Virus record (IMG/VR): IMGVR_UViG_2630968911_000004
Coordinates: 1-10,949 of that record
Origin: a virus
Lineage: Duplodnaviria > Heunggongvirae > Uroviricota > Caudoviricetes
Reading direction: 5' to 3' (one strand)
Length of the DNA: 10,949 bases
A program made the position numbers and the translations under genes. Positions 3,897-7,776 of this stretch are shown here, piece by piece (the stretch's first letter is position 1; each line of letters begins with the position of its first letter). The notes below the pieces were generated by a model that saw nothing but the letters and a program-made list of their open reading frames with translations, made no database searches and was not told the origin of the DNA.

Positions 3897-4142
3897 ATGA
3901 CTTTTGATGAAAAAGAACTTGATAATGCAATTAATAAAATCATCGTAACGTCGCTCTTTTCCTGTCTCAGCGACACTCAGCAGAAACAGTTCTACGAATC
4001 GGCTTTCAACATGATCGAGAGTTGTTGTTTCTGCGATGCCGACGAGTTACCTGAAATAATCAGGAAACAGTTGGCTGATGCTCTTCGAGTGCGACTTTCT
4101 GACCAATTTTCTGAAATGTGCTCTCCGAATTTGGACAAATAG
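3897..4142 (+). CDS. hypothetical small acidic Cys-containing protein, 81 aa
   Basis: ATG 3897 preceded by AAGGAA SD at 6 nt; plausible helical C-terminus. Its 3' end overlaps the convergent minus-strand ORF 4060..4335 by 83 nt, so one of the two may be mis-called. Confidence 0.5.
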   Translation: MTFDEKELDNAINKIIVTSLFSCLSDTQQKQFYESAFNMIESCCFCDADELPEIIRKQLADALRVRLSDQFSEMCSPNLDK

Positions 4143-4335
4143 AAAAAGGCCATTTCCATTCAGGGTCTGATGGAAATACTTCAGCCTGTTCCAAAGCACG
4201 GCGTAAAGAGAATACAACTCCAGCCATAGCCTGATGTTTCCCATTGGTCCAGCTATCGCCGCTCTGATCTACAGGAGCGGCTATGTCGTATGACCAAACG
4301 ACTTCACCACTATTGTTTAAAATCTGGACTTTCAT
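4060..4335 (-). CDS. hypothetical protein, 91 aa
   Basis: ATG 4333-4335 with GGAGG upstream (spacing about 12 nt) and 8 nt downstream of the ClpX-ZBD-like gene, so operonic. N-terminal 60 aa look protein-like; the C-terminal 28 aa are antisense to ORF 3897..4142. Confidence 0.5.
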   Translation of the reverse strand: MKVQILNNSGEVVWSYDIAAPVDQSGDSWTNGKHQAMAGVVFSLRRALEQAEVFPSDPEWKWPFSICPNSESTFQKIGQKVALEEHQPTVS

Positions 4336-4343
4336 TTTGTTCT

Positions 4344-4547
4344 TTAACCTCCAGATTTCCGCGCATCTAAAGGTGCATTCTCATTTGGTGTGAACTGAAT
4401 AGTTGTGCTGATATTGATTAATGCTCCGACACACAAGACTACGCACTCAGAGCAGATAGCAACTTCATCTTTTCCGCCTTTGGCGATGATTTTTTTTGCC
4501 TGCAGCTCGTTTGCGCCACAAAACGAGCATGTGAAATAACGGTTCAT
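4344..4547 (-). CDS. stand-alone ClpX-type zinc-binding-domain (zf-C4_ClpX-like) protein, 67 aa
   Basis: FTCSFCGANELQAKKIIAKGGKDEVAICSECVVLC aligns with the ClpX N-terminal zinc-binding domain as recalled ([32 protein letters not shown]), including all four Cys. Start set at the second ATG (4545-4547), which has a weak GAGAG SD; the first ATG (4565) has none. Confidence 0.65.
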   Translation of the reverse strand: MNRYFTCSFCGANELQAKKIIAKGGKDEVAICSECVVLCVGALINISTTIQFTPNENAPLDARKSGG

Positions 4548-4649
4548 TTGCGCTCTCTTACACATAGTATTTAACGAATCATCCGGTCATTCATACGCCA
4601 CCGGCGGCTACTTCGTGGGCGTCCTGCCTGTTCGTTATCTTTGACATAA

Positions 4650-4678
4650 AATCTAACTTAACTTAGTTATTATGGCAA
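4650..4678 (-). promoter_or_regulatory. candidate leftward early promoter (PL-like) with an overlapping CTTAGTT operator-like repeat
   Basis: Minus strand: -35 TTGCCA (plus 4673-4678), 17 nt spacer, -10 TAGATT (plus 4650-4655). The spacer contains one copy of the CTTAGTT heptamer that recurs in the OR region. No experimental support; sigma-70 fit is moderate. Confidence 0.3.
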
Positions 4679-4709
4679 GAGAAAACACCAAACTTTTCTT
4701 AGTTCGGTG
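4676..4709 (-). terminator. candidate intrinsic terminator downstream of the cI-like repressor
   Basis: Minus-strand RNA CACCGAACU-AAGAAA-AGUUUGGUG (9 bp stem with one G-U pair) followed by UUUUCUCUUG, beginning about 22 nt after the repressor stop. Confidence 0.4.
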
Positions 4710-4731
4710 CCTTAGTTAGAGAAGAGAGGTC

Positions 4732-5358
4732 TTAGAGTTCGTATTGAACTCCTTTGACTACACCAATGATAAGGCAATTACCATTGATAGGGATGTTGGG
4801 ATACCGAGGATTTAATGGCACTAAAAACTTTTGAGGGCCATCGATGACTAATTTTTTTACTGTAGCTTCGTTTGTTCCATCAAGTCGAGCGATGACTATT
4901 TTTCCATGACGAGGTTCTGCATCTGGATCTACAATCACTGTTGCGCCTTCTGGTATTGTTGGGAGGCCATTAGGGTTAGTCATGGAGTCACCTTTAACCT
5001 CTAATGCAAATGAGTTATCACCAATCTTTAATGATGTATCTACCCACTTGTCCACTTCACTAAACACTTCTGCTGCCCTGCACTCAGTAAACTGCCCAGC
5101 CTGAACCCACGATATTACAGGAACTCTGCGCATGTTTGTGACGAGTTTGCCTTCAAACTCAGCACCATAAAGAATGTAATCTATTGACGTATTGAAGAAC
5201 TTCGCTAATTTCGAAAGTGCCTCCCCACCAGGGGTATTGATGTCTTTCTCCCAGTACCCCACAGCAACGTCGCTTACTCCACAAAATTTACCCAATTCTT
5301 TCTGGGACGTTCTGGTAACTCTTCTCAGAGCTTTTATACGCTGACCAACCGTTTCCAT
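4732..5358 (-). CDS. CI-like prophage repressor, 208 aa (N-terminal HTH, C-terminal S24/LexA-type autopeptidase)
   Basis: N-terminal HTH_XRE-like segment (QKELGKFCGVSDVAVGYWEKD) and C-terminal GDSM catalytic-Ser motif with a downstream Lys. Divergent from the Cro-like gene. Confidence 0.9.
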   Translation of the reverse strand: METVGQRIKALRRVTRTSQKELGKFCGVSDVAVGYWEKDINTPGGEALSKLAKFFNTSIDYILYGAEFEGKLVTNMRRVPVISWVQAGQFTECRAAEVFSEVDKWVDTSLKIGDNSFALEVKGDSMTNPNGLPTIPEGATVIVDPDAEPRHGKIVIARLDGTNEATVKKLVIDGPQKFLVPLNPRYPNIPINGNCLIIGVVKGVQYEL

Positions 5359-5455
5359 AGGAGCACCATTTCTTGAATTGCTAAGTAATCTTAGTTTTTA
5401 TTGACCAAAGATAGATTTGTAATTAGCATCTAATAAAACTTAGTTTGGAGGGCGT
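5359..5455. promoter_or_regulatory. divergent OR-like regulatory region between repressor and cro-like gene, with a PR candidate and a palindromic operator candidate
   Basis: Plus strand: -35 TTGACC (5401-5406), 17 nt spacer, -10 TAGCAT (5424-5429), GGAGG SD at about 5447-5451 before ATG 5456. Palindrome CTAAG-TAAT-CTTAG at 5381-5394; further CTTAGTT at 5438-5444. Confidence 0.5.
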
Positions 5456-6586: not shown

Positions 6587-6603
6587 AGGTCGGTCATGAG
6601 CAC
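6427..6603 (+). CDS. candidate small protein, 58 aa, TTG start (not in the supplied ORF track)
   Basis: AAGGAG SD at 6413-6418, 8 nt spacer, TTG at 6427-6429; product [59 protein letters not shown]; TAA at 6601-6603 overlaps the next gene's ATG region. It may instead be the frameshifted C-terminus of the 6248 gene. Confidence 0.35.
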
Positions 6604-6856
6604 TAAATTAACCGGCTATGTATGGGATGGTTGCGCAGCGTCAGGCATGAAATTATCCAGCGTGGCAATTATGGCCCGCCTGGCTGATTTCAGTAATGAC
6701 GAAGGTGTGTGCTGGCCATCAATTGAAACCATTGCCCGCCAGATTGGCGCGGGGATGAGTACCGTCAGAACGGCTATCGCACGGCTGGAAGCAGAAGGCT
6801 GGTTAACGCGTAAGGCGCGTCGCCAGGGTATCCGGAGTAATCCATGCATCGTATAG
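6596..6856 (+). CDS. winged-helix (HTH_36-like) phage replication-protein N-terminal domain protein, 86 aa; possibly truncated
   Basis: AGAGG SD 6 nt upstream of ATG 6596. Segment [50 protein letters not shown] is the wHTH seen at the N-terminus of phage replication initiators. The ORF ends 13 nt into the tail fiber gene, with no replication or structural genes between. Confidence 0.65.
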
Positions 6857-7776
6857 ACACGAAAACCGCGCAGAAGGATAAGTTCGGCGCGGGTAAGAAC
6901 GGTTTTACCCGTGGTAACCCCCAGACCGGCACACCTGCCACCGATCTGGATGATGACTACTTTGACATGTTGCAGGAAGAACTTTGTAGCGTGGTGGAGG
7001 CCTCCGGTGCCAGCCTGGAGAAGGAGCGGCACGACCAGTTGCTTACCGCGCTTCGTGCGCTGCTGTTAAGCCGCAAGAATCCGTTTGGTGATATCAAATC
7101 GGATGGCACGGTGAAAACGGCTCTCGAAAACCTTGGTTTGGGAGATGGCTCGGGGCGTTACAGCAAAACTGTCGTTTTTTCATCGTCGGGTTCATATACG
7201 TGGCCAGCTGACGTAAAACGAATTGACGTTATTCTGACTGCGGCGGGCGGCGGTGGCGGTGGATGTAACGCGGAGAACGCAAATCAGACATTTTCAGGGG
7301 CTGGCGGAGGAGCCGGAGGTACTGTTTTTGCCACTATTTATGCGACAGACAACGATGCCGGGCCAGGAACCTATACAGTGACAATTGGCAGCGGTGGTAG
7401 TGGTGCCAATGGGTCAGGGTCTGGAAATAATGGCGGTAATAGTTCGTTCATGACATTAACTGCGCTCGGCGGCCAGGGTGGGCAATGGGGCGGCGCTACA
7501 AATACCGCTGGCGGGCGCGGTGGCTCAGGCTCTGGCGGTTATAAAACTGAACAAGGCGGAGACGGTTCAGACGGACAGGCGGGCCAGGCGCTATTAGTAG
7601 GCAATGGGGCATCGAGCTATTGGGGTGGCGGCGGCCGCGCTGGGCAACTGAGCGGTAATCCTGGAGTTTGCTCTGGCTCCGGCGGCGGGGGTGCATACGA
7701 TAATAGCTATTCACACACGTCAGGACGTGGCGGGCACGGAGCTAATGGCGTGCTGGTAATTCGGGAGTACATGTAA
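6844..7776 (+). CDS. phage tail fiber protein, 310 aa, Gly-rich C-terminal repeats
   Basis: GGAG SD 6 nt upstream of ATG 6844; the frame has a stop immediately upstream, so there is no hidden N-terminal extension. Long Gly/Ser/Ala/Asn-rich repeats are typical of side tail fiber distal domains. Followed directly by a tail fiber assembly gene. Confidence 0.85.
7121..7146. other. Hin/Gin/Pin-family invertase crossover-like site inside the tail fiber gene
   Basis: CTCTCGAAAACC-TT-GGTTTGGGAGAT with a perfect 12 bp palindromic core AAACC-TT-GGTTT. By my recollection it resembles hixL (TTCTTGAAAACC-AA-GGTTTTTGATAA) and gix, matching about 10 of 12 positions in the left half and 8 of 12 in the right half against hixL. 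Confidence 0.35.

Follow-up and report, generated by a model that had tools for sequence, protein, structure and literature searches.

The prophage gene examined here, which we call ZF, encodes a 67-residue protein that, as judged from its sequence and a predicted structure, is a stand-alone ClpX-type zinc-binding domain (ZBD) and no more, and upstream sequence comparison places it as the first gene of a leftward, repressor-controlled early operon. By analogy with characterized ClpX docking interactions, we tentatively propose, with a confidence that stops somewhat short of even, that ZF is a free competitor that would keep ClpXP from degrading phage proteins, for example the replication initiator. 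The window, meaning the whole stretch of 10,949 nucleotides that was analyzed, matches E. coli G4/9 (CP060073) at 100% identity and represents a defective CPS-53/KpLE1- or SfV-like E. coli prophage located between dsdC and argW that carries torI, yfdPQR, gtr genes, and intS. Its own replication gene (6596-6856), which is of the HTH_36 type, breaks off after codon 86, next to a gene for a tail-fibre or glycine-rich protein (6844-7776), so that the prophage has lost everything from the replication to the tail-fibre genes. The cI, cro, and PL region is intact in this prophage, and ZF could still be SOS-inducible in this host.

The translation of ZF (67 residues plus stop) is MNRYFTCSFCGANELQAKKIIAKGGKDEVAICSECVVLCVGALINISTTIQFTPNENAPLDARKSGG. 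A second in-frame ATG at 4565, 18 nt upstream of the ZF start, would give a 73-residue product if used; a Shine-Dalgarno-like GAGAG precedes the ATG at 4547 only, and the RefSeq/PGAP coding sequence comprises the same 67 residues. The corresponding record (WP_001083098.1) already carries 'ClpX C4-type zinc finger protein' as its PGAP product name, so the domain had been recognized before this analysis. The sequence-only reading had described the protein as a ClpX-type C4 zinc ribbon with all four cysteines kept and had named a search against the Pfam family zf-C4_ClpX (PF06689) as a check, and the description was borne out: ZF matches this profile with 41.3 bits (E = 1.4e-10) against a gathering cut-off of 27 bits, covering 33 of its 39 positions, and homologues of ZF score 26-53 bits. 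Across 47 stand-alone homologues the zinc-ligand cysteines C7, C10, C32, and C35 (CxxC...CxxC) are invariant or nearly so, and F9, A22, I31, C39, and V40 are also conserved. When ZF was compared with the sequences in the PDB using phmmer, ClpX alone was matched (2DS5, 1OVX; E ~3e-4). An AlphaFold2 model generated with the 47 homologues as input was confident for residues 1-49, with a block-mean pLDDT of 78-95 for residues 1-50, and predicted a helix at residues 33-49 and one short β-strand, followed by disorder from residue 50 to 67. A Foldseek search of the PDB with this model returned ClpX or its ZBD, and no other protein, as the best six matches, with target-normalised TM scores of 0.80-0.84 for four crystal chains (2DS5, 2DS6, 2DS8) and 0.68 for the NMR entry 1OVX; five ClpX ZBD entries superposed on the model with an rmsd of 1.4-1.8 Å at 36-41% identity, and every PDB match outside ClpX had E > 1. 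ZF has no AAA+ module, as the NCBIfam ClpX equivalogs TIGR00382 and NF003745 score 23-26 bits against cut-offs of 359-371 and match ZF through their N-terminal 40-45 positions only. The PHROG families of ZF (phrog_5259 and phrog_20296) carry no function annotation, and PADLOC defence profiles gave no match to the ZF protein or to neighbours of interest. On the strength of these similarities ZF probably binds zinc and dimerizes. The coordinates of ZF and of the elements surrounding it are given in Table 1.

Table 1. Features at and around the ZF gene (positions within the window).
Feature	Position	Strand	Remarks
cI-type repressor gene (HTH_3 + Peptidase_S24, LexA-like)	4732-5358	-	directly upstream of ZF, same strand
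Three AACTAAG operator-like (OL-like) half-sites	4662-4717	-	
PL-like sigma-70 promoter (TTGCCA, 17 nt, TAGATT)	4650-4678	-	~95 nt upstream of the ZF ATG
5' leader of the PL transcript (61 nt), two small hairpins	4575-4635	-	also in SfV
ZF cassette (ribosome-binding region, CDS, and spacer; 235 bp)	4338-4572	-	insertion/deletion relative to phage SfV
ZF CDS (67-aa stand-alone ClpX-type ZBD protein, WP_001083098.1)	4344-4547	-	stop codon included
ZBD core, residues 1-49 (β-hairpins and helix 33-49)	4401-4547	-	from homologue alignment, AlphaFold2 model, and Foldseek
Codon of C7	4527-4529	-	zinc ligand
Codon of C10	4518-4520	-	zinc ligand
A8 homopolymer within the ZF CDS	4490-4497	-	A7 allele is a frameshift in some prophages
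Codon of C32	4452-4454	-	zinc ligand
Codon of C35	4443-4445	-	zinc ligand
Codon of C39	4431-4433	-	invariant fifth cysteine
Disordered C-terminal tail, residues 50-67	4347-4400	-	length and sequence differ among homologues
Next operon gene (91 aa, phrog_3195, SfV orf33 homologue)	4060-4335	-	starts 8 nt past the ZF stop

Lambda O, MuA, FtsZ, and the adaptors SspB and RssB all dock on the ZBD of ClpX (PMC5415555, PMC7804408). Lambda O, the textbook example of a ZBD-dependent ClpXP substrate, is not degraded when the ZBD is missing, and its site, like those for trigger factor, SspB, and RssB, overlaps a hydrophobic pocket at F16 and I46 (PMC7804408). ZF shares with this domain the C4 zinc-ribbon pattern CSFCG...ICxEC...LC, the predicted fold, and the equivalent of F16, which is F9 and is invariant in the 47 homologues. 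In contrast, Y34 of ClpX aligns with A30, I46 with A42, which is variable in the family, and L42 with a variable position, while Asn44 is replaced by an invariant valine, the β-hairpin contains a three-residue insertion (AKGGKDE), and an unrelated, disordered tail of 18 residues stands in place of the linker that leads to the AAA+ motor of ClpX, which ZF does not have. We take Y34 and L42 to be part of, or next to, the hydrophobic docking pocket, and Y34 and I46 are conserved among ClpX orthologues. As the equivalents of Y34 and I46 are alanines and the hairpin carries an insertion, the same adaptor specificity (SspB, RssB) should not be assumed for ZF. A protein of this kind might instead target ClpX itself, retargeting or poisoning the enzyme through mixed dimers with nascent ClpX N-domains or through docking on the hexamer, or it might be an adaptor or anti-adaptor that delivers one specific protein to ClpXP or withholds it. 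The ZBD is a dimerization domain (PMC5415555), the helix and core residues C39, V40, I31, and A22 are conserved in ZF, and anti-adaptors are an established means of regulating delivery to ClpXP (IraD; PMC7226468). The short, variable, and disordered tail of ZF, however, has no recognizable tethering motif. ZBD dimers are also very stable, making exchange into existing ClpX unlikely, and we consider roles of this kind improbable.

Upstream of ZF, the three AACTAAG half-sites at the PL-like promoter have only two counterparts elsewhere in the window, at 5390-5396 and 5439-5445 in the intergenic region between cI and the P22-type cro that lies opposite the repressor gene, giving a count of five where 1.2 would be expected. 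For the promoter and operators, the comparison set consisted of 83 placeable loci with the window-type ZF subfamily. This revealed that in all 83 loci ZF follows an S24 repressor gene that shares its strand, and that sequence upstream of ZF is 100% conserved to 88 nt before the ATG, beyond which it is unrelated between immunity types, each with its own -35/-10 pair in the unrelated part. The promoter-side repeats recur in the cI-cro region of the same phage in four of the five repressor types examined, and in loci with 1-2.3 kb of extra genes between cI and ZF the promoter and operators still adjoin ZF. The promoter and operators of ZF thus change together with the cI allele over at least five immunity types; the leader, which is transcribed, and the gene itself do not. 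As the resulting mosaic junction falls approximately at the predicted transcription start, ZF is the first cistron of the repressor-controlled early operon, and the earlier claim that it is the first gene after PL holds across immunity types. ZF would be silent in the lysogen and expressed early, under repressor control, in at least five immunity types.

Two other relationships to the repressor were considered. Co-transcription of ZF with cI in the lysogen, which would suggest a rex-like role, was rejected for the window subfamily because the immunity-specific promoter and operators always adjoin ZF, even when it is separated from cI; such co-transcription is possible at a single Mu-like locus. 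A tie between ZF and one repressor allele was likewise rejected, as an identical ZF gene accompanies repressors of 208, 224, 228, 230, and 253 aa, at least five sizes in all.

Several observations were made on genes further along the same arm. The open reading frames 3897-4142 (+) and 4060-4335 (-) converge and share 83 nt at their 3' ends, and each has a strong PHROG match (phrog_3311, E = 2.5e-53, and phrog_3195, E = 6.9e-63, respectively); PGAP annotates the minus-strand frame only, and the two are either a true antisense pair or the product of one PHROG family having been built from spurious calls. An early gene of the PAPS-reductase family (674-1552, -) matches the PADLOC profile SspD (E = 1.2e-14) and, weakly, BrxP and DndC, which hints at a DNA-modification or anti-defence role within the PL operon.

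The leader between the promoter and ZF keeps 95-100% identity in loci that have diverged on both sides of it, in the promoter and operators as well as in the ZF gene (dS saturated), and it is present in SfV (L002, 4586-4643) and in all SfV-like loci (L003-L004, L009-L012, L019-L098). Its two hairpins contain compensatory pairs of substitutions (G:C to U:A, and U:A to G:C along with G:C to U:A), with 98% of cells paired and the changes tracing to few independent events. Folded alone, the leader has an energy that is not significant (z = -0.8); it had no match in Rfam, and no second copy was found near PR. Possibly it acts as a nut- or put-like element, or as another kind of leader RNA, in a phage group without a known N. 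ZF stands where lambda N or HK022 Nun would be, behind this strongly conserved leader with covarying hairpins, SfV-like phages have no evident N homologue, and ZF has a weak match to an Elf1-type zinc ribbon (E = 0.069), all of which would suit a transcription factor of the early operon, either an N/Nun-like antiterminator or excluder or a DksA/TraR-like zinc protein that binds RNA polymerase. However, SfV has the same leader and operon without ZF, indicating that ZF is not needed for operon expression, and related ZF subfamilies are located in PR operons, where one such phage has its own N_peptide gene. ZF also has no arginine-rich motif (pI 7.6) and no Pfam match to N, Nun, DksA/TraR, or Q, and its fold match is specific to the ClpX ZBD. 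We therefore regard a role in transcription as very unlikely.

Comparison with SfV further showed that ZF is carried on a discrete cassette: SfV lacks the sequence equivalent to window positions 4338-4572, yet has the same promoter type, leader, and next gene (orf33). Of 5,426 complete E. coli genomes, 98 (1.8%) carry the cassette, versus 1,924 with the prophage arm that surrounds it. In addition, an A7 allele of the homopolymer within the coding sequence frameshifts ZF in the viral-contig loci L062-L066, and several complete E. coli genomes (e.g. the ST167 group, H6-H15) contain ZF matches that are one base shorter (234 nt) with the CDS unannotated, consistent with the same A7 allele. This A8/A7 variation could reflect recurrent inactivation or homopolymer slippage. 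By its distribution the cassette is accessory and dispensable, and the link to host-takeover genes drawn in the sequence-only reading was therefore overstated.

Nonetheless, ZF behaves in codon comparisons as a real gene that is under purifying selection. Between three enterobacterial ZF subtypes, the 46-codon core has a dN of ~0.2 with dS saturated, and dN/dS is 0.09-0.29. These values bear on whether ZF is no more than the decaying 5' end of a captured clpX gene, without function and carried along passively by a mosaic prophage, as could be supposed from the defective state of this prophage, the frameshift alleles at the A8 run, and the low prevalence. Decay would be difficult to reconcile with such low ratios across subtypes, with the zinc ligands and core residues kept in 47 homologues, with the presence of a ribosome-binding site belonging to ZF itself, or with the conservation of this ZF subfamily in many seemingly complete prophage contigs of 35-50 kb, and we give this explanation very little credence.

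Stand-alone ZBDs extend well beyond this prophage. A profile-free exhaustive search yielded 154 representatives at E ≤ 1e-3, nearly all of which are short proteins with 1-4 ZBD copies and not ClpX, and a profile search yielded 413 family members, many of which bear the name 'ClpX C4-type zinc finger protein' in Enterobacteriaceae. A tblastn search of GenBank phages gave four matches only; gene contexts for the family were drawn from metagenome and prophage contigs. The window-type subfamily lies first after PL, is not beside the initiator, and occurs with different replication modules (HTH_36, Phg_2220_C). In the other ZBD subfamilies, ZF is directly upstream of the replication initiator in 46 of 46 viral-contig loci (L103-L148), and in two further genome contigs, which are lambda-like (L015, L100), it overlaps the initiator start by 38 nt. 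The order in 38 of the 46 loci is a YdaT-like gene, ZF, a gene of ~200-355 aa in the initiator position, and a DnaC/IstB-like loader. Six have cII, ZF, an HTH_36 initiator, and P, the order of the Citrobacter type, in which a lambda-P homologue follows the initiator and ZF overlaps the initiator start, and two have cII, ZF, Phage_rep_O (PF04492, E = 2e-33 and 9e-38), and a DnaB-like helicase. The initiator families beside ZF genes (HTH_36, Phage_rep_O of the lambda-O family, and an unnamed type) are mutually unrelated. In one Mu-like prophage, ZF is beside the repressor and near a MuA-type transposase. As far as can be told, the placement of stand-alone ZBD genes either first after PL or directly before an initiator is new.

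Over the ZBD core, identity to E. coli ClpX is lowest for the window type (53% over 30 aligned residues), reaches 60-67% in the replication-adjacent types, and extends to 70-79%, which suggests that stand-alone ZBDs descend from proteobacterial ClpX and have diverged progressively. Members of phrog_5259 and phrog_20296 and the cII-ZF-O types of Citrobacter, Salmonella, and Enterobacter prophages resemble the window ZF in domain, size, and location in an early regulatory region. The other subfamilies, however, are in the PR operon directly before the initiator and are nearer to ClpX (60-79% identity), whereas the window ZF adjoins the repressor gene, is first after PL, and has the loop insertion.

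The family also includes a range of structural variants. The fourth cysteine is lost in some (ICQKW or ICQKY; L129, L130, L134), and the hairpin is partly lost in L135-L148. Metagenomic proteins with two to four tandem ZBD copies are found among P0016, P0018, P0024, P0027, P0028, and P0167, and one metagenomic protein of 2,505 aa has 22 ZBD-matching stretches. Other viral ZBD proteins have a conserved N-terminal 'KAKKYDxL' helix (L150, L153, L155, L164, L168, L174). Long PL-first versions of ZF, of 112-127 aa, occur in Salmonella and E. coli prophages (L079-L098, P0013, P0021), and their extra C-terminal region of ~70 residues had no Pfam match; P0013 is on at least 1,000 contigs, with the source name Salmonella enterica serovar 4,[5],12:i:-.

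Linkage to initiators can be read in two ways. One is that the fold serves as a compact binding module with the initiator, or another phage or host protein, as its direct partner, for example as an assembly or solubility chaperone or a regulator of origin firing, without competition for ClpX ligands. The tight and often overlapping linkage fits a partner as well as a protector, the ClpX docking patch has diverged in ZF, many stand-alone or tandem ZBD proteins exist outside phages, and the C-terminal tails and extensions are variable, in proteins of up to 127 aa. This reading is less easily extended to the window subfamily, which is at PL, away from the initiator, and accompanies differing replication modules; moreover, one host factor common to all of them, ClpX, would account more simply for the association with unrelated initiator families, and several subfamilies are still 60-79% identical to the host ClpX ZBD. 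We consider a direct partner unlikely, though it is the alternative to which we give the most weight. The other way is to see the initiator as a protected client, as suggested by the placement of family members before unrelated initiators, true O proteins included.

In the competitor mechanism that we favour, S24-type CI bound to operators overlapping PL would keep ZF off in the lysogen, and upon infection or SOS-induced repressor cleavage the leftward early operon would yield ZF before any other protein. The product would be the ClpX docking domain in free, zinc-bound, and probably dimeric form; having no AAA+ motor, it could not unfold anything itself. ZF would bind the peptide signals that tether N-domain-dependent substrates and adaptors to ClpX and so would compete with ClpX, allowing an O-like replication initiator, as the most probable beneficiary, and perhaps other early proteins to escape ClpXP. 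Isolated ClpX ZBD supplied in trans inhibits RssB-mediated sigma-S degradation in vitro, and excess SspB likewise blocks it (PMC7226468). Together with the docking role of the domain, these precedents lead us to expect that an early, free phage ZBD would compete for ClpX ligands, and it is by this route that we infer the ligand of ZF and its effect on ClpXP. Removal of the CI N-terminal fragment at induction needs ClpX in S. aureus (PMC10584840); as ZF would be expressed only after derepression, a role in CI-fragment removal is unlikely.

The competitor mechanism is favoured by the sequence and fold match to the ClpX ZBD alone, the retention of F9, the purifying selection on the core, the predicted early, repressor-controlled expression, the linkage of sister subfamilies to initiators, the HTH_36 type of the prophage's own truncated replication gene, and the Mu-like locus near a MuA-type transposase. 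It is disfavoured by the partial retention of the docking surface, by the window subfamily being the most diverged and lying away from the initiator, and by the dispensability of ZF, which is absent from SfV, rare in E. coli genomes, and frameshifted in some carriers. The many small non-phage proteins with 1-4 ZBD repeats also mean that the fold may serve uses unrelated to ClpX, and, as ClpX has positive functions in replication as well (remodelling of the Mu transpososome, disaggregation of lambda O), the sign of the effect of ZF is uncertain. No publication on a free-standing ClpX zinc domain from a phage, or on a ClpX inhibitor of phage origin, turned up in the searchable full-text literature, and viral structure predictions contained neither a characterized stand-alone phage ZBD nor such an inhibitor.

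Small early phage proteins that shelter phage regulators from a host AAA+ protease are known: lambda CIII, from the PL operon, inhibits FtsH, and T4 PinA and T7 gp4.5 inhibit Lon. As a small early protein proposed to shield phage products from a host AAA+ protease, ZF would be analogous to these, but their targets are FtsH or Lon and none of them copies a protease domain, whereas ZF is proposed to mimic the docking domain of the protease itself. By a similar analogy, IraD, IraM, and IraP resemble ZF in the proposed control of ClpXP substrate choice through docking competition; these are host stress proteins of unrelated folds that bind RssB, whereas ZF would imitate the ClpX side. A wider proposition, that enterobacterial and some other temperate phages repeatedly carry a captured and since remodelled ClpX N-domain as a decoy, and that these form an undescribed class of anti-protease that shields the initiator and possibly a Mu-type repressor or transposase, is one that we hold as possible but more doubtful than the competitor role of ZF.

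ClpXP sets the lifetimes of lambda O, MuA, the Mu repressor, and repressor fragments, as well as of host sigma-S, UmuD', and ssrA-tagged proteins, and a phage-made copy of its docking domain would be a simple and widespread means of control over these clients. The sister genes that adjoin initiators make the decoy idea a specific, testable hypothesis, and natural ZBD variants could be used for mapping docking specificity and are a possible tool against N-domain-dependent degradation. If ZF is unrelated to ClpX in function, a fold that recurs beside initiators would still point to an unrecognized replication accessory factor. If the wider decoy proposition is correct, ZF might transiently rewire the traffic of host ClpXP adaptors and clients (SspB, RssB/sigma-S, UmuD) on induction, and a prophage that is defective, like the present one, would then use it to modulate host proteolysis in an SOS-inducible manner.
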